From IMG/VR virus record IMGVR_UViG_3300045994_000112, positions 1 through 59,286 of that record: DNA of 59,286 nt, one strand, 5' to 3'. The number at the start of each line of letters is the position of its first letter. Within the stretch, counting starts at the first letter, position 1. Below, in pieces: positions 20,501 through 42,077 of the stretch. Origin of the DNA: a virus (Duplodnaviria > Caudoviricetes). The position numbers and the translations under genes were made by a program. The notes under the pieces were generated by a model. It did no database searches. It was not told where the DNA came from and saw only the letters and a program-made list of their open reading frames with translations.

Positions 20501-21913
20501 TTAAGCGTAGCTGTAACGGTCCTTCATAACCGTCTTCAACATGATGCCTTCTGGGGTGAATTCATCCATGTCTGCACCTAGCAATGCTGCGACAATAGCT
20601 GGGCTAAAGCCGCTAACCAATGCTGCACCAGACTTGTCTGCTGCTACTGGGGCGTTACCAGAACTCTTTAGGTTCCAGAAAACAACTTGTGGCATTGTGT
20701 AGCCTGCTGCTTCGTACTTACGTTCGATCATTTGCATGGCCGAGTCGTCGTGCGTTACGCATTGGTCGAATTGCATGTCCGACAAGATCAATACCATTGC
20801 TGGCATATCAGCTTGTGGAACGCTGCCCTTCACTGCCGTATCAAGGATCTTTGCAAATGCCTTGTTGATGTCAGTGTTCATTGCCCACTTAGACTTAACC
20901 ATTTGTTCCATCTTTTGGATGATGTCGCCCTTTAGGGTCAACAATTCTGGCGAACCAGAGAAGGTTAAGAATGTGTCCTTGAACGCACCCTTGTTCTTAT
21001 CAGCTAGGTACAAGCCCAAGCTAACTGCAACGTCCATACATGTAGTAGAACCGCTGCCACCTGCTGCGCAGGACATCGAACCAGATACGTCAACCAGAGG
21101 TAGGATACTTGCGTCACCTACATAGTTTGGCAATGCGTTCCATTGCGCGATGATGTGATCCTTTTCAGTCTTGTTGTAGCTGGCACCGTAGGTACCAATG
21201 CCCTTCAAAACATCGTATGGGAATACTGCTGCGGCGTTAACCTTAACAGATGGGTCACCCTTCACCAAAGCTGCAACGTATTCTGCGAACTTGGTTGTGT
21301 TACGGCTGAAAGCCTTCTTGTAACGAGCCGAAGCTACAGATGGAACGTGGGAGAAGTTGATGCTATCCCAGTCCTTAGCGCACATCGCGGTTTCAACGAC
21401 GTTAGTCATTGTAACCAGAGACTTACGGTAGAACTTTGGAGACATACCAAAGTGTTCACGGATTTCACGTGCGACTTCACCCTTACGAGGAGTCCACTTT
21501 GCAGCCAAGCCGTTCTTTGCACGAAGTGCATCGCCCAGCATGGTGTATGCCACATCCTTCATTGGCTTGGTCTTGAACACGAACAAGTCGTCCCAACGGC
21601 CAAGTTCAGGGATCTTTGCCAACAGAGCCTTAGCTGCGTCGGTATCAGAGCCTTCCAAATATGTCAGAATGTCACGGAAGATTTGACGTTCACCAGCACC
21701 ACCACGAGCATCACGTGCCCACAATGCGATACGCAACGCTAGGTCACGATCTTCTGCCAGAGCCGCAACGAATTGCGGAATAACGTTCTTACCACGGCTT
21801 GCGCCGATGTTGTAGAACAGGTCTACCGTCGCCTTAGAGGTCGACTTACGTGCCTTCATACCGTTAGCGGTACGGGCTTCTTGGTTGGCGATTGCCTTTA
21901 CAAATGCGTTCAT
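20501..21913 (-). CDS. DUF2828 family Ro60/TROVE-like protein with vWA domain
   Basis: RDARGGAGER, GRWDDL, AAKWTPR, MIDAS DVSGSM, ILSDMQFD, VFWNL. Confidence 0.9.
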   Translation of the reverse strand: MNAFVKAIANQEARTANGMKARKSTSKATVDLFYNIGASRGKNVIPQFVAALAEDRDLALRIALWARDARGGAGERQIFRDILTYLEGSDTDAAKALLAKIPELGRWDDLFVFKTKPMKDVAYTMLGDALRAKNGLAAKWTPRKGEVAREIREHFGMSPKFYRKSLVTMTNVVETAMCAKDWDSINFSHVPSVASARYKKAFSRNTTKFAEYVAALVKGDPSVKVNAAAVFPYDVLKGIGTYGASYNKTEKDHIIAQWNALPNYVGDASILPLVDVSGSMSCAAGGSGSTTCMDVAVSLGLYLADKNKGAFKDTFLTFSGSPELLTLKGDIIQKMEQMVKSKWAMNTDINKAFAKILDTAVKGSVPQADMPAMVLILSDMQFDQCVTHDDSAMQMIERKYEAAGYTMPQVVFWNLKSSGNAPVAADKSGAALVSGFSPAIVAALLGADMDEFTPEGIMLKTVMKDRYSYA

Positions 21914-32965: not shown

Positions 32966-33044
32966 TGGTCTCGGCGGCAGGATTCGAACCTGCGACATCC
33001 TGCTCCCAAAGCAGGCGGAGTGAACCGGGCTATCCTACGCCGAG
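32966..33044 (-). tRNA. tRNA-Pro(TGG)
   Basis: Cloverleaf, CCA. Confidence 0.9.
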
Positions 33045-33638
33045 TATTTCTGCAATACGCTGTTCTATACGCTCTTTTGAGTCGATGCGGTAAACAGTGT
33101 ACCCTAAACTATTTAGTGCTGCATCGCGTTCTCGATCTTTATCGGAATCTTTATGCCATTGCGCACCATCTATCTCAATAATAACATTACCTATAACAAA
33201 ATCTGGAAAATACTTTCCTATTCGTTTCTGGTGTTCAAATTCGATACCTAACTTAGTTAAGTACTCATACGCAACCTTTTCAGGGTACGTCATTTTATTT
33301 CTATTTCCCGCAAGTCGCCTATTAGGATGTGTCTCGGGATGATCTATGTGTAATTGCTTCCTCCATTCGGATTTAGCTTTACGCATATCATCAGTCCATA
33401 TTGTGTTGGACGGCTTGCCCATCTTCACTGCTGACAATGCGGCTGCGTTATTTGCCACTCTACTATCAGTAGCTTTATTCAAACCTTTGTTCCACGATGG
33501 AACACCTTTTGTATGAGAGACATAGTTTCTATCTGGATTGCTTGGGCACAGCCTTTCGTGATTACGTAGTGAGTTCAAATTTTTGCACTCTTTTCCGCAA
33601 TACTTGCAATTCAAATTTATTACTTCGGTTATTCTCAT
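33030..33638 (-). CDS. DUF559/Vsr-like endonuclease with zinc finger
   Basis: CKYCGKEC..HERLC; YFPDF..IIEIDG.QWH..D.ERD..L..LGY. Confidence 0.85.
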   Translation of the reverse strand: MRITEVINLNCKYCGKECKNLNSLRNHERLCPSNPDRNYVSHTKGVPSWNKGLNKATDSRVANNAAALSAVKMGKPSNTIWTDDMRKAKSEWRKQLHIDHPETHPNRRLAGNRNKMTYPEKVAYEYLTKLGIEFEHQKRIGKYFPDFVIGNVIIEIDGAQWHKDSDKDRERDAALNSLGYTVYRIDSKERIEQRIAEILGVG

Positions 33639-34678: not shown

Positions 34679-34856
34679 TTGTTTTAAGGCTGACGTTTGT
34701 GCTTGCGTACAGGATTCGAACCTGCCCATCCGGGTTTAAAGCCCAGTATGCTATCCACTACATCAACGTAATCTCCTTACCAACCATACTGCAATACTTA
34801 TGGACAGGAGTCAAACTTCAGACTGCTTCAAATTGCAGTTATCAGCCTTAAAACAA
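34679..34856 (-). ncRNA. long-stem CTGCAA RNA enclosing tRNA-like domain (TTA anticodon)
   Basis: Same terminal stem as 29824-30000; GGCTGAT-AA-CTGCAA; CTGGG-CT-TTA-AA-CCCGG. Confidence 0.7.
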
Positions 34857-35043
34857 CTAACTAAAATCATTACCAATAGCACACGGAATCGAACCGTAAA
34901 GTCTGTATTACTGACTGCGACCACGCCAAGCTCATGCATAAACCTTTATGCTATCTTGCTGTTACTGCCTGGGATTCCGAGCCCCAATGCGCCGAAGCCA
35001 GTCCCGTGAATGACTCAGTAACAACGGATAATGAAAACTAACA

Positions 35044-36193
35044 AATATGACCTGCCGCTACGTTTGGACTCTTACCACAGTTTTTCTCGAGGGTACAAGC
35101 CCCGACGCTGTTTATGGCCTTTTCAGGAACATCACTGCAAAGAGCACCGCGGAAGGATGATGCCCTACTGTTTACTTTTCGGTTAATTACTCCGACTAAT
35201 TAGATGGGAATACGCGGCGCCTACTAGGAACTCAATGTTCCGTTCGACTTCTGTCCCCGGCAGCATCACCGCCGACACAATTTTTCATACCCTACTGGAC
35301 CGACTTTGCTCATCGTTTGTCAATCGCGTCTGCTTGAACTACCAATGCACATTTGATTGAAGACCGCGGCGAACCCACGGCTCGGCACCCATCTACTATT
35401 GAAAAATGGTATCTTAGTATACTATTTCTTTGCCCATCGTCGTTTTGCTGACTCGGACATTCTTTTTATTGTTTCCTCTGATCTGGGCTTGCATTTGCGG
35501 CCCTTCATCGCTTCGGAAACTTTCCTCTTTTGTTCTTCAGATTTTGGTTTCTTAGCACCTCGACGCACTGCTTCACGCAGGGCCTCGGGGTAATTCTCCA
35601 ACATTCTTTTCGACTGTTTTGCTTTATGCTCTTCTGATCTTGGTTTTTTAGGAATACCTAAATCATTTACATATCGCCAACCACAGCCGCCGCCTAAAAC
35701 TATGTTATACACATCAGTTCTTTGCAAGAACTCTGCGTTAACATAATGCCTTTCAGCTTCACGCATTGAGGCTTCGTCTTCGAAGTATTCCAAAATCGTT
35801 TTCGAAAAATTCTCTTTACCAGATTTTGCTATTGCTTGTCTGATTATTTTTCCACTGCCCATATAACCATCATTTAAGTTCTTGGTTTTATGGACGCCGA
35901 CATAAATCATTCCGTTAGTAGTGTTCTTGATCTCGTACAAATAAAAATGCATATAGCCTCCTACTTTATTTATACAAAATGTGTCGCCATCTACTATCTT
36001 ACTAACCTGTGTCTTAGTATTAGTCCCAGAGTATATTCACATGCACAGAGGACTGGGCTCCATGTGCTGCTACATGATTTGCAGGCCTGTTACAAAAGGT
36101 TCTCTAATGTCAGGTTCCTTTATCCGCTTATCCTAGTCCCGCTGGTGTCCGAAGGCCGTGCGCTAACCAAGATAAGTTTCAGCTAATCATATA
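35044..36193 (-). ncRNA. probable ROOL-like large RNA interrupted by an endonuclease gene
   Basis: About 560 nt net; ATATGAT/GTCATAT end pairing; TAGCGCA, AGTAGATGG and TAACCGAAAA motifs match ROOL as recalled from memory. Confidence 0.55.
35422..35952 (-). CDS. GIY-YIG (Seg-like) homing endonuclease with NUMOD3
   Basis: YLYEIKN..NGMIYVGVH..DGYMGSG; SEEHKAK repeats; own TATAAATA. Confidence 0.9.
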   Translation of the reverse strand: MHFYLYEIKNTTNGMIYVGVHKTKNLNDGYMGSGKIIRQAIAKSGKENFSKTILEYFEDEASMREAERHYVNAEFLQRTDVYNIVLGGGCGWRYVNDLGIPKKPRSEEHKAKQSKRMLENYPEALREAVRRGAKKPKSEEQKRKVSEAMKGRKCKPRSEETIKRMSESAKRRWAKK

Positions 36194-36540
36194 TAAACTC
36201 ACTCGCATCTGCCTTTTTGAGCCGCGTGTTCTATCCCTTAGCTTCGGCCTAGGACCAATCAGGATGTGCACATGTACACTAGAGCTTATATATGATCACA
36301 ATCACTAAAACGCTTGCCGGCGTAAACGACCCCGGGGCGCTGATCGACTGTAAATCATATTCAAACACATTATTTCCCCCGGGGCGTACCCCAGAGTTAA
36401 ATCATCCCTGATACAAACTAATGTACTTGAATATGACCCCTTATGCTTCGCAGCATCTTCACGATGTAGCGGACTGTTAAAGCGTATTGCCACAAACTTG
36501 GGCTCAGCACTGTCATCAGCAAAGGGATATCATAACCATT

Positions 36541-36556
36541 AAATTTTTAAAGAACA
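36541..36556 (-). promoter_or_regulatory. rrn-type boxA antiterminator
   Basis: TGTTCTTTAAAAATTT; a second copy at 36667-36683. Confidence 0.65.
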
Positions 36557-36721
36557 AGTATTGTCTGTTAGGTAAGTTAGATGGGAGATTTCCCTTACCC
36601 TGTTACTCTGTATCAGTCTACCCTAAAGTAGCATCAACCTGCGGCTCCCCGTGCACGAACAGACAAAAACTTTTTAACGAACATCTAGCAGCTAACTCGA
36701 TCATTTACTGCTTAAGTACCT

Positions 36722-36931
36722 ATTGTACATTAAAGTTAATTTAGTGTCAAACACTTTGTTTCTATCCCTTAGCAAGCTTAGGATTTCTTCACTTAGTGCT
36801 TTATCTAACTTAAGTCTTATTGTACATTAAAACCTATTAAGCGTCAACTTAGTTTGGCAATCTTTTTACTTACCGCCAACCACCTCATCAACTTAAGTAC
36901 CTATTGTACATTAAAACGTTTATTACGTCAA
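36722..36931 (-). promoter_or_regulatory. three tandem sigma70 promoters
   Basis: TTGAC(A/G)-17-TACAAT at 36722-50, 36819-47 and 36903-31. Confidence 0.8.
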
Positions 36932-37248
36932 ATCCTGAAGCTTTCGCCACATCCACAACGATCTCGCTCGTTTGGGTTGTTGAAGCGGAATCCCTCATTC
37001 AATCCTTCACGTACATAGTCCACTTCCATGCCTTGTAAATAGGCACAGCTCTTAGGGTCAACGAACAGTTTGCAGTCCTTGCATTCAATGCAAAGGTCTT
37101 CTGCTTGCGCTTCGTCTACGTACTCTAGCACGTATGCTAGTCCACTGCAACCTGTTGTCTTAACGCCAAGACGGATACCGGCACCTTTACCACGCTTTGC
37201 GATAACTTGCTGTATCTTTCTAGCTGCTTTATCAGTCAGTGACAACAT
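36928..37248 (-). CDS. iscA: iron-sulfur cluster assembly protein IscA
   Basis: RLGVKTTGCSGLAY; CGCGESF. Confidence 0.95.
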   Translation of the reverse strand: MLSLTDKAARKIQQVIAKRGKGAGIRLGVKTTGCSGLAYVLEYVDEAQAEDLCIECKDCKLFVDPKSCAYLQGMEVDYVREGLNEGFRFNNPNERDRCGCGESFRI

Positions 37249-37625
37249 GCTTTGCCTTGTAATCTGCAACCGCTGCCTTGATAGCATCTTCTGCAAGAAT
37301 AGAGCAATGGATCTTTACTGGTGGCAGAGCGAGTTCTTCTGCGATTGTACTGTTTTTCAGGGACGCGGCTTCGTCCAGTGTTTTTCCTTTGACCCATTCT
37401 GTCACTAATGATGACGATGCAATGGCTGATCCGCAACCGTAAGTCTTAAATCGTGCATCAGTGATGATGCCGTCTACCACTTTGATTTGTAGCTTCATTA
37501 CATCGTCAACAACCGCAAGCTGGGGCACCAACCATCCCGGTCCCAACTTGCGCATCTCCTTTACCGAACGACCCTACGTTCCTCGGGTTTTCATAATGGT
37601 CAATCACAGCATTTGAATAAGCCAT
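37232..37625 (-). pseudogene. iscU: IscU with 7-nt frame-disrupting insertion
   Basis: MAYSNAVIDHYENPRNVG..GAPACG in one frame, DVMKLQIKV..YGCGSAIASSS..LPPVKIHCS in another. Confidence 0.85.
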
Positions 37626-38208
37626 AATAACCTCCTTTTAAAAATCTTATTACGTGCATAGGTTGATAGCTATCCCACTTAGCACGATTGTCTGCACCCT
37701 TGAGGAACTGAATATTTTTCTTGCTCCCCAATACTTCAGCCGGTAGTCCTAATTCATATCCCTGTTTGTAGGGGACGACATGGTCTACTTGCCAATCTGT
37801 TTTTCTTTTACCGCAAGTGGGGACATATTCTCCTGCTTGCTTCATTGCCTTAATCGTTCTATAAGTTGCCTTGCGTACCATTCCCTTATACACTGCTAAC
37901 TCACTGTTAGCTGGTTTTTTAGGACGTCGATTATTAACTGCTCCGTCTCTATTGGGGTTATTGGTGAGCCACTTTTGACTCTGCTTTTCGTTTGGCAAAC
38001 CCTTGTTCCATCCGTGCCCTTTTTTAAGGCCGTCATGGTTTTGTTTCTCTTTTTGCTCTGCTGTTAGCTTAACCCCTTTGTTCCAAGCTTTATTACCTGG
38101 ACGATTAATAGGGTTTTTGCATGGCGCAGAGCAATAAAGCACATACCTGGGTTTAGTTTCAAACAGGTTGCCGCAAAACTTACAAACAGACGATATTCCG
38201 TATTTCAT
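37600..38208 (-). CDS. HNH-like homing endonuclease
   Basis: CKFCG..YCS..C, WNKG repeats, VDHVVP...N. Confidence 0.75.
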   Translation of the reverse strand: MKYGISSVCKFCGNLFETKPRYVLYCSAPCKNPINRPGNKAWNKGVKLTAEQKEKQNHDGLKKGHGWNKGLPNEKQSQKWLTNNPNRDGAVNNRRPKKPANSELAVYKGMVRKATYRTIKAMKQAGEYVPTCGKRKTDWQVDHVVPYKQGYELGLPAEVLGSKKNIQFLKGADNRAKWDSYQPMHVIRFLKGGYYGLFKCCD

Positions 38209-38501
38209 ACAGTATTTATGTTGGTGCGCCCGTTTGCGAGTTTTTCCTGGCTCTTGTGCATCAAAGCACCGTACTTCAATGTGAACATGAATGTGTCGTC
38301 TGTTGCTACAGTGAACACAGCCCATGCTTTGTTAACTTTTCCCCAGCGGTAGTCTCGTTCACGTTCGTAATTGAACGTGTAAAAATCCGCATCTAATTCT
38401 GTCTCCATTGCCCACATCAAGATATCGTCTACGAATTCTTGGCGGGCATACTTGTGCTCATCCCTGTGAAGGTGGACGGGCATTTCGATTCTAACTTTCA
38501 T
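38205..38501 (-). CDS. hypothetical protein
   Basis: AAGGAG SD; ATGA overlap. Confidence 0.65.
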   Translation of the reverse strand: MKVRIEMPVHLHRDEHKYARQEFVDDILMWAMETELDADFYTFNYERERDYRWGKVNKAWAVFTVATDDTFMFTLKYGALMHKSQEKLANGRTNINTV

Positions 38502-41777: not shown

Positions 41778-42077
41778 TCAACACTCCGTAGCCGGGATTC
41801 TGTTCTATGCTAACATTAATCTTTGCCACAACCCGCACCTATAAGCAAAAGGTTCCCAAGTGCTGTTTGTGTTGCACACTATATCACGGTAGTGTTAACG
41901 ATAGCATTTTGTGGTGGAGTTTGCCAGGGGCTTTCACCTGGTTGCGGCCTGGAGCGCGAAGGCCCAGTTTCGTCCTATATGTTACGTGTTCAAACCCCAT
42001 TACAAAATACTATCTCCTACTCGCCCTTTGCGTGTGTCCCGAACTTCCTGACTTGCGCCCGTTAGCTCGAATGTTGA
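41778..42077 (-). ncRNA. rnpB: RNase P RNA
   Basis: P1 TCAACATTCG/CGGAGTGTTGA; P2 GCTAAC/GTTAGC; AGGAAGTTCGGGA with AACAGAATCCCGGCTA (P4); GGTGAAA, GGCAAACTCCACC, GCAA. Confidence 0.85.

Follow-up and report, generated by a model that had tools for sequence, protein, structure and literature searches.

In the annotation of phages T4 and RB18 the homing endonuclease gene segB sits in a tRNA gene cluster, and excerpts of two published studies place SegB homologues in phage tRNA clusters (PMC2330249, PMC13096335). As stated in the first of these excerpts, T4 SegB recognizes the T-psi-C motif of tRNAs and targets a conserved tRNA-gene sequence, with a biased inheritance near 100%; homing endonucleases favor conserved targets, and for SegE, a relative of SegB, co-conversion of the flanks is described (PMC2330249). 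According to the second excerpt, SegB shows a statistical association with tRNA genes in phages generally and can cause segmental duplications by way of microhomology (PMC13096335). Here we analyzed the region from position 35044 to 36193 of a 59-kb fragment (59 286 nt; this whole stretch is called the window below) of the uncultured virus record IMGVR_UViG_3300045994_000112, which is about 17% complete by the record's own estimate. ARAGORN predicts 56 tRNA genes in the window, all on the minus strand, and all features described below lie on this strand as well unless stated otherwise. We consider it probable that a SegB-type free-standing GIY-YIG cassette was copied into the 5' edge of an RNA gene that has not been described before, here named JY, which is directly followed by a second structured RNA module, X1, in the tRNA island of an uncultured freshwater jumbo phage. 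The original prediction for this region was largely real: a homing endonuclease is indeed inserted in a structured non-coding RNA locus beside phage tRNA genes, and a nuclease-free relative carries the RNA uninterrupted. Its naming of the RNA as ROOL-like was wrong.

We collected JY loci by pattern scans of viral contigs for the junction motif and then for an invariant 18/19-mer and a second conserved word pair; the later scans, of viral and metagenome contigs, added 12, 31 and 17 loci. The junction-motif scan of the viral contigs led to tRNA-array loci in which a single motif is followed by sequence resembling the right-hand block of our region (35051-35419). With an nhmmer profile we obtained 61 matches corresponding to 33 distinct full-length sequences, and the alignment (A1) comprises 32 sequences, that of the window included. 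The complete copy in the window, which consists of the parts J2 and Y, occupies 35198-35419 (about 210-225 nt) and matches the family profile with 132 bits over positions 1-209 of 211. We observed 53 invariant columns in the alignment, mostly junction nucleotides, and helices that vary freely; all 53 columns are retained by the window, which is itself one row of the alignment. The alignment-derived fold starts with H1 (35407-35413 with 35274-35280), a long-range helix in which six of seven pairs vary on both sides and the remaining pair on one. Within it, H2 (35382-35386 with 35299-35303) is an invariant 5-bp helix around the covarying hairpin H3 (35375-35381 with 35363-35369) and the variable hairpin H4 (35323-35362), and a 3' domain is formed by H5 (35269-35272 with 35260-35263), H6 (about 35254-35258 with 35204-35209) and H7, the base of which pairs 35246-35248 with 35219-35221. 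RNAalifold predicted 36 pairs, 19 of them with compensatory changes. For a 34-pair structure, in which 18 pairs are altered on both sides, 98.1% of the cells are paired compared to 85.1% in shuffled alignments (none of 500 reached the observed value), and the pairing drops to 33-47% once the partner strand is slid.

All JY homologues were found in uncultured phage or metagenome contigs, nearly all of them within tRNA arrays. For the genomic context we used the flanks of the fetched loci (36 rows, representing the 33 distinct sequences) and observed a same-strand tRNA in the flanks of 30 sequences; in 10 of the 33 a tRNA ends 2-4 nt upstream of JY, and in 13 a tRNA starts 0-11 nt downstream. 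Because flanking tRNAs start or end within a few nucleotides, the placement of JY in the array is that of a tRNA gene. A blastn search against cultured phages (E ≤ 1) returned a single chance match of 30 nt, and the JY 19-mer gave no match in a collection of one genome per prokaryote species. The core word of JY does not occur in six supplementary files of a catalogue of structured RNAs from IMG/VR (PMC10690425), a catalogue which may still list the family, and we found no description of the JY RNA in the literature. Searches that started from neighboring proteins gave no homologues either: 80 loci of the neighboring IscA-like protein had no DNA in common with the non-coding blocks (of 16 loci scanned, 15 were without any tRNA or tmRNA gene and one carried a tmRNA only), and a radical-SAM neighbor used as bait returned no relatives. 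As a separate observation, one contig (L140 and L141; loci of relatives are given as L numbers) carries two JY copies about 750 nt apart, the upstream one covering profile positions 74-209 only, and no nuclease open reading frame (ORF) was found between them.

Directly abutting JY lies X1 (35051-35201, about 150 nt; 107.8 bits in nhmmer), for which RNAalifold predicted 23 pairs from 10 sequences, 14 of them with compensatory changes. X1 follows JY directly in the window, L121, L115 and L140 and directly precedes it in L085, L159-L163 and L164; in other lineages a different module of about 80 nt, X2, is located near JY, in one case 234 nt apart. Since X modules are found before, after or apart from JY, we regard X and JY as separable modules of variable order. 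JY and X1 are thus conserved RNA families, supported by covariation, that are absent from Rfam. In the relative L089, a DUF559-like ORF fragment was seen by eye directly after JY (L085/L089, about 2190-2410).

The stretch of JY and X1 occurs in RNA libraries as one contiguous piece. A single freshwater-sediment study contributed three metatranscriptome runs, each with one whole contig on JY-X1: 357 nt for 35051-35397 (depth 22.6), 354 nt for 35054-35397 (depth 17.6) and 224 nt for 35051-35273 (depth 8.2). These contigs stem from a relative that is about 88-91% identical to the window. No RNA-library contig was found on the nuclease gene, on the block upstream of it or on 34868-35035, which carries no weight because the phage in the RNA runs is only a relative. 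The RNA contigs also bear on the idea that the conservation reflects a function of the DNA, such as a nuclease target, a recombination hotspot or a promoter, rather than an RNA. The most conserved stretch does coincide with the insertion site of the nuclease, but compensatory changes in 18 JY and 14 X1 pairs are a signature of RNA structure, the stretch is present in RNA libraries and only 1 of 33 members contains the nuclease, so that we judge a purely DNA-level explanation highly improbable.

The nuclease gene (35422-35952) encodes a SegB-like free-standing GIY-YIG homing endonuclease of 176 amino acids. Its N-terminal residues 3-72 match the Pfam GIY-YIG domain PF01541 (26.2 bits compared to a cut-off of 22.6, E 9.8e-6), and the protein matches phrog_314 'homing endonuclease' with E 1.1e-43; over 176 amino acids it shares 43% identity with T4 SegB (E 3e-41). 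In a blastn comparison of the region with cultured phages the nuclease gene alone gave matches, always to segB/segD-type genes of T4-like phages. The original prediction had also given this gene a late promoter of its own, and a T4-type late-promoter-like TATAAATA (35967-35974) is indeed located ahead of the gene, together with the Shine-Dalgarno sequence AGGAGG (35957-35962), so that both signals span 35957-35974. We counted eight TATAAATA sites in the window compared to 2.8 expected, a number reached by none of 100 shuffled sequences, and seven of the eight lie on the minus strand, which is the gene strand. This enrichment and strand bias fit T4-type late promoters, and TATAAATA is thus a putative promoter of the nuclease gene, as judged from its sequence and position.

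The closest relative, L121 from a 66-kb contig, has flanks that are 82-88% identical to the window and contains one uninterrupted JY followed by X1, but no nuclease. The nuclease gene is therefore present in one and absent from the other of two otherwise homologous loci. According to the blastn breakpoints, a cassette of 665 nt (35323-35987) replaces 41 nt of L121; it contains the promoter, the nuclease gene, J2, the 5' strand of H2, H3 and H4. Upstream of the cassette lies J1 (35984-36019), an orphan copy of the first 36 JY positions which nhmmer found as a partial match to profile positions 1-36, and this region is collinear with the nuclease-free L121 up to 35988. The repeat noted before at both junctions is real and marks the insertion: the pattern TACTAAGA-N12/14-ATAGTAGATGG has exactly two copies, at 35389-35419 and at 35987-36019, where chance predicts none. 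The hairpin H4 of the window is almost identical to H4 of a distant family member, L138, although the two RNAs differ elsewhere; because of this likeness the cassette segment may have come from another lineage, and H4 looks like an exchangeable module. Searches for a second nuclease-bearing JY allele found none, and the viral contigs gave one relative of the nuclease with 35% identity.

These findings lead us to propose that the nuclease would cut nuclease-free alleles near the invariant junction of J and H2 during co-infection, and that repair would then copy the cassette together with flanking markers (co-conversion). The donor flank would restore the 5' portion of JY, stranding the 36 nt of the resident 5' end (J1) as an orphan upstream. 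With a JY 5' end supplied by the cassette itself, the downstream RNA gene would remain whole. Such a course of events fits the behavior reported for SegB and its relative SegE. The nuclease would then be expressed late from its own TATAAATA promoter, and JY and X1 would be co-transcribed with the tRNAs from three tandem sigma-70-like promoters upstream (36722-36931). The enzymes that process tRNAs would release both RNAs, RNase P by its cut at the 5' end of the following tRNA. As their genomic context suggests, JY and X1 might act in trans in a tRNA-linked process.

Several observations weigh against the proposed insertion of a cassette that leaves JY intact. All JY homologues were gathered by exact conserved words, so that the conservation of those words is overstated, and the right block (35051-35419) has an unremarkable minimum free energy (MFE) z-score of +0.25 when folded as a single sequence, although we regard it as a real structured RNA because of its covariation. 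One nuclease-bearing allele was found, and homing into this site is thus deduced from one allele pair. The RNA-library sequences are assembled contigs from one study, with DNA carry-over possible, and give neither the strand nor the true RNA ends; moreover, with a start at 35397 they lack the H1 5' strand of J2, which lies upstream, and do not support that J2 belongs to the RNA. The ends, the processing and the function of JY and X1 are predictions from sequence alone. Finally, J2 is without the nearly invariant AG of the J segment of the family and pairs with the resident H1 3' strand (35274-35280) in only six of seven positions (with one wobble and one mismatch), whereas the J1 strand GACACAG (36007-36013) pairs with it in all seven and fits it better. 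J1, across the insert, might for this reason still be the copy used by the RNA. In this case JY would be truly interrupted, with J1 pairing via H1 with Y, the insert of about 600 nt looped out or the RNA made of two pieces, and J2 would be a decaying by-product. The pairing, the family J consensus that J1 keeps and J2 partly lacks, and the start of the RNA contigs all speak for such an arrangement. However, J2 and Y together fit the profile from position 1 to 209 with every invariant column kept, the strong covariation of H1 means that this helix tolerates sequence change, none of the 32 other distinct sequences has an insert at this place, and contig ends cannot reveal RNA ends. The tolerant loop or two-piece RNA that had been thought to follow from the inserted nuclease is not required, because a complete JY copy lies downstream of it, and we regard an interrupted JY as unlikely.

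Rfam offers no known family for the locus. With the gathering thresholds of Rfam 15, cmscan found tRNAs only in the whole window and no Y-RNA family, and a search of 34750-37000 at E ≤ 10 gave four chance-level matches but no ROOL, GOLLD or group I intron. The check with these three models after removal of the nuclease, which had been proposed with the ROOL label, was carried out on naturally nuclease-free relatives, and neither L120 and L121 (E ≤ 10) nor L085, L089, L103 and L104 (E ≤ 1) gave a match. For ROOL (RF03087; gathering score 99.1 bits, one contiguous RNA of about 570-580 nt), none of four records (window, L121, L085 and L120) matched at E ≤ 10, although no control genome matched this model either; the same four records also gave no match at E ≤ 10 to GOLLD (RF02032, gathering score 150 bits) and to the group I intron (RF00028). 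Around the locus we found no interrupted tRNA or protein gene, as exons of a group I intron would be.

The earlier reading of the region was a single ROOL-like RNA, about 560 nt long, that the nuclease gene divides into two halves (36193-35990 and 35400-35044). A position in a phage tRNA island resembles the context reported for ROOL and GOLLD in excerpts of PMC5737381 and 10.1101/2024.12.08.627333, and the outer ends are marginally complementary: the outer 40-nt duplex reaches -20.3 kcal/mol compared to -14.2 ± 3.2 for shuffled sequences, 21 of 500 of which match it. The pairing of the outer ends, however, is not conserved, because the upstream arm lies in 36073-36288, a segment of 216 nt that is absent from L121. 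This segment is a window-only insertion of which neither the rest of the window nor any fetched locus gave a second copy; it lies outside the RNA family and makes up most of the upstream block (block A), the second of two blocks that were thought to be structured. The right block stands as a structured RNA on the basis of covariation, but block A does not (MFE z-score -0.5), and only 36020-36072 has a homologue. This short conserved element upstream of J1 is 94% identical in L121/L151 (two excerpts of one contig), where alone it was found, and shows one compensatory change by eye (CCCAG/CTGGG compared to CCCGG/CCGGG). Instead of a net size of about 560 nt we observed conserved units of about 210 nt (JY) and about 150 nt (X1), and family members of about 210 nt stand alone between tRNAs. 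Together with the missing model matches, whose sensitivity in the case of ROOL is without a control match, this leaves a single ROOL-like RNA with next to no probability.

We also considered that JY, X1 or both are Y-RNA-like partners of a Ro60-like protein and tether it to substrates or nucleases for tRNA quality control. The window encodes a full-length match to phrog_850 'RNA-binding protein' with DUF2828/DUF7788 (20501-21913), which we read as Ro60-like, and homologues with 55-67% identity are present in three of five other JY-bearing fragments; bacterial and phage Ro60 proteins have tRNA-mimicking Y RNA partners according to an excerpt of PMC4201824. However, the Y RNAs reported in this excerpt lie within about 4 kb of the Ro60 gene on the same strand and have a tRNA-like domain, whereas in the window about 13 kb separate JY from the Ro60-like gene on the same strand, and in the three fragments the distances are about 7, 30 and 35 kb; JY was never adjacent. 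No Y RNA family matched 34750-37000, L120 or L121 at E ≤ 10, and neither JY nor X1 showed a T-arm-like module. Since the phages in which both occur are related, their co-occurrence is not independent evidence, and we find a Y-RNA-like role distinctly improbable.

A further possibility was a reduced and rearranged RNase P-like ribozyme for phage tRNA arrays, with JY as a catalytic-domain-like part and X1/X2 as a module binding the tRNA elbow. Its only basis is a likeness by eye between some conserved JY/X stretches and conserved regions of RNase P RNA, together with the tRNA-array context and the near-minimal size; X modules that stand before or after JY, as separable domains would, point in the same direction. 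However, RNaseP_bact_a (RF00010) matched none of the four records at E ≤ 10, compared to 11 of 14 control genomes, and a local alignment of four JY members with E. coli rnpB was no better than with shuffled sequences (the score of the window was reached by 131 of 300). The helix topology also differs unless a circular permutation is assumed, and RNaseP-T (RF02357) matched only at an unrelated site. We rejected the resemblance on the model and alignment tests and hold an RNase P-like ribozyme to be very unlikely. The unrelated RNaseP-T match is located at 41778-41898 (13.2 bits, E 0.044), in a gap of about 530 nt between tRNA genes; it is weak and probably due to chance, and the gap may hold another small RNA.

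Folded RNAs of at least 200 nt with dozens of invariant unpaired nucleotides are rare and have historically turned out to be ribozymes, riboswitches or the cores of RNA-protein machines. The many invariant unpaired nucleotides of JY likewise point to catalysis or to a specific partner, which could be a protein, an RNA or a ligand, although any function is a guess. A more far-reaching idea is that JY, alone or with X1/X2, is a new catalytic or tRNA-binding RNA of giant-phage tRNA arrays, for example a ribozyme that releases itself or processes pre-tRNAs, or a decoy against host defenses directed at tRNAs, with an invariant junction conserved enough to serve as the target of a homing endonuclease; we mention this as a slim possibility.

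The region upstream of the locus contains the three tandem sigma-70-like promoters (TTGACR-N17-TACAAT, 36722-36931), which match the consensus in 10-11 of 12 positions, are directed into the region and may function as promoters to judge by their sequence. They lie about 84-97 nt apart, and a similar leader follows each of them. A 14-nt word, TTCTATCCCTTAGC on the plus strand, occurs twice, at 36760-36773 after a promoter and at 36229-36242 within the 216-nt insertion. Between the promoters and the locus, the non-coding stretch 36289-36557 is 82.6% identical to L121, has an MFE z-score of -1.97 and contains a 21-bp hairpin (36355-36375 with 36416-36436); it may be a further lineage-specific structured RNA. 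Downstream of X1 we found a second window-only insertion compared to L121, of 168 nt (34868-35035), which holds a degenerate tRNA-like sequence (34877-34960) with a perfect T-arm (17.7 bits, not called by ARAGORN). The tRNA block is closed by a suppressor tRNA with the anticodon TTA, which reads UAA (34699-34773, ARAGORN). A local frame scan for hidden coding by stop-codon recoding opened no long frame on the minus strand; a plus-strand frame of 855 nt, opened by TAA read-through, was judged to be due to chance.

Two other endonuclease-like genes lie within the tRNA island (33030-33638 and 37600-38325); one of the proteins is a zinc-finger and DUF559/Vsr-like protein and the other matches phrog_5104 (function unknown) and appears HNH-like by eye. 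An IscU/NifU-like gene (37232-37625) is split into overlapping ORFs (37506-37625 and 37232-37555) by a frame change near 37510-37520, just past the conserved Cys-Gly of the N-terminal part, which could be a real frameshift, an assembly error or decay. The window also encodes radical-SAM enzymes, IscU/IscA-like genes and a RecA/UvsX-like gene, and its T4-type large terminase is about 51% identical to the terminases of the jumbo phages PA5oct and Atu_ph07. We observed near-identical DNA in riverine, wetland and pond metagenome runs, with at least half of the sampled words present in seven runs, two of which may be the window's own source.

Taken together, the locus is more interesting than an ordinary intergenic nuclease gene. 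Two structured RNA modules outside Rfam, JY and X1, are packed like tRNA genes in the arrays of an uncultured freshwater jumbo phage clade, and the JY family is directly testable in vitro because it is small and well defined. If our reading of a copied cassette is right, the nuclease allele is a natural experiment in which a SegB-type element entered an RNA gene by supplying a replacement 5' end; selfish nucleases could then colonize non-coding RNA genes without destroying them, and the junction of J and H2 would be a candidate target site.

Compared to known systems, JY resembles RNase P RNA in its tRNA-linked setting, in having many unpaired nucleotides that are invariant and in a length close to that of the minimal forms, but differs in giving no model match and no significant alignment. 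As in the case of the YrlA/Y RNAs, which are structured and tRNA-related according to an excerpt of PMC4201824, the phage encodes a Ro60-like protein, yet JY is not adjacent to its gene, has no tRNA-like domain and matches none of these families. ROOL (RF03087) and GOLLD (RF02032) are, like JY, non-coding RNAs with a complex fold and unknown function, reported near tRNA genes and in phages in the excerpts available, but their models comprise 574 and 416 positions compared to about 210 nt for JY. T4 SegB resembles the nuclease of the window more closely: both are free-standing, both are located in a tRNA island beside small stable RNA genes and both have a promoter-like signal of their own, and the replacement of flanking markers in the window resembles the co-conversion described for SegE in an excerpt of PMC2330249. 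The nuclease of the window is shorter (176 compared to 221 amino acids) and its C-terminal region is divergent. In contrast to segB of T4, its gene lies at the edge of a structured RNA gene other than a tRNA gene, with a duplication of 33-36 nt of the 5' end of that gene, and we saw no T-psi-C motif, the target of T4 SegB, at the JY junction, which is a candidate target here. By position, the closest analogy to JY and X1 is offered by rnaC and rnaD of T4 (species 1 and 2). These small stable RNAs, likewise of unknown function, are encoded at the end of the T4 tRNA cluster, next to segB and in line with the tRNA genes. The length of X1 (about 150 nt) is close to that of rnaC (139 nt), whereas JY is larger and has a different fold supported by covariation; nhmmer found no similarity of rnaC and rnaD to the JY, X1 and X2 profiles at E ≤ 10. 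Understood in this way, JY and X1 would extend the old, unexplained observation of extra stable RNAs in phage tRNA clusters, made with species 1 and 2 of T4.

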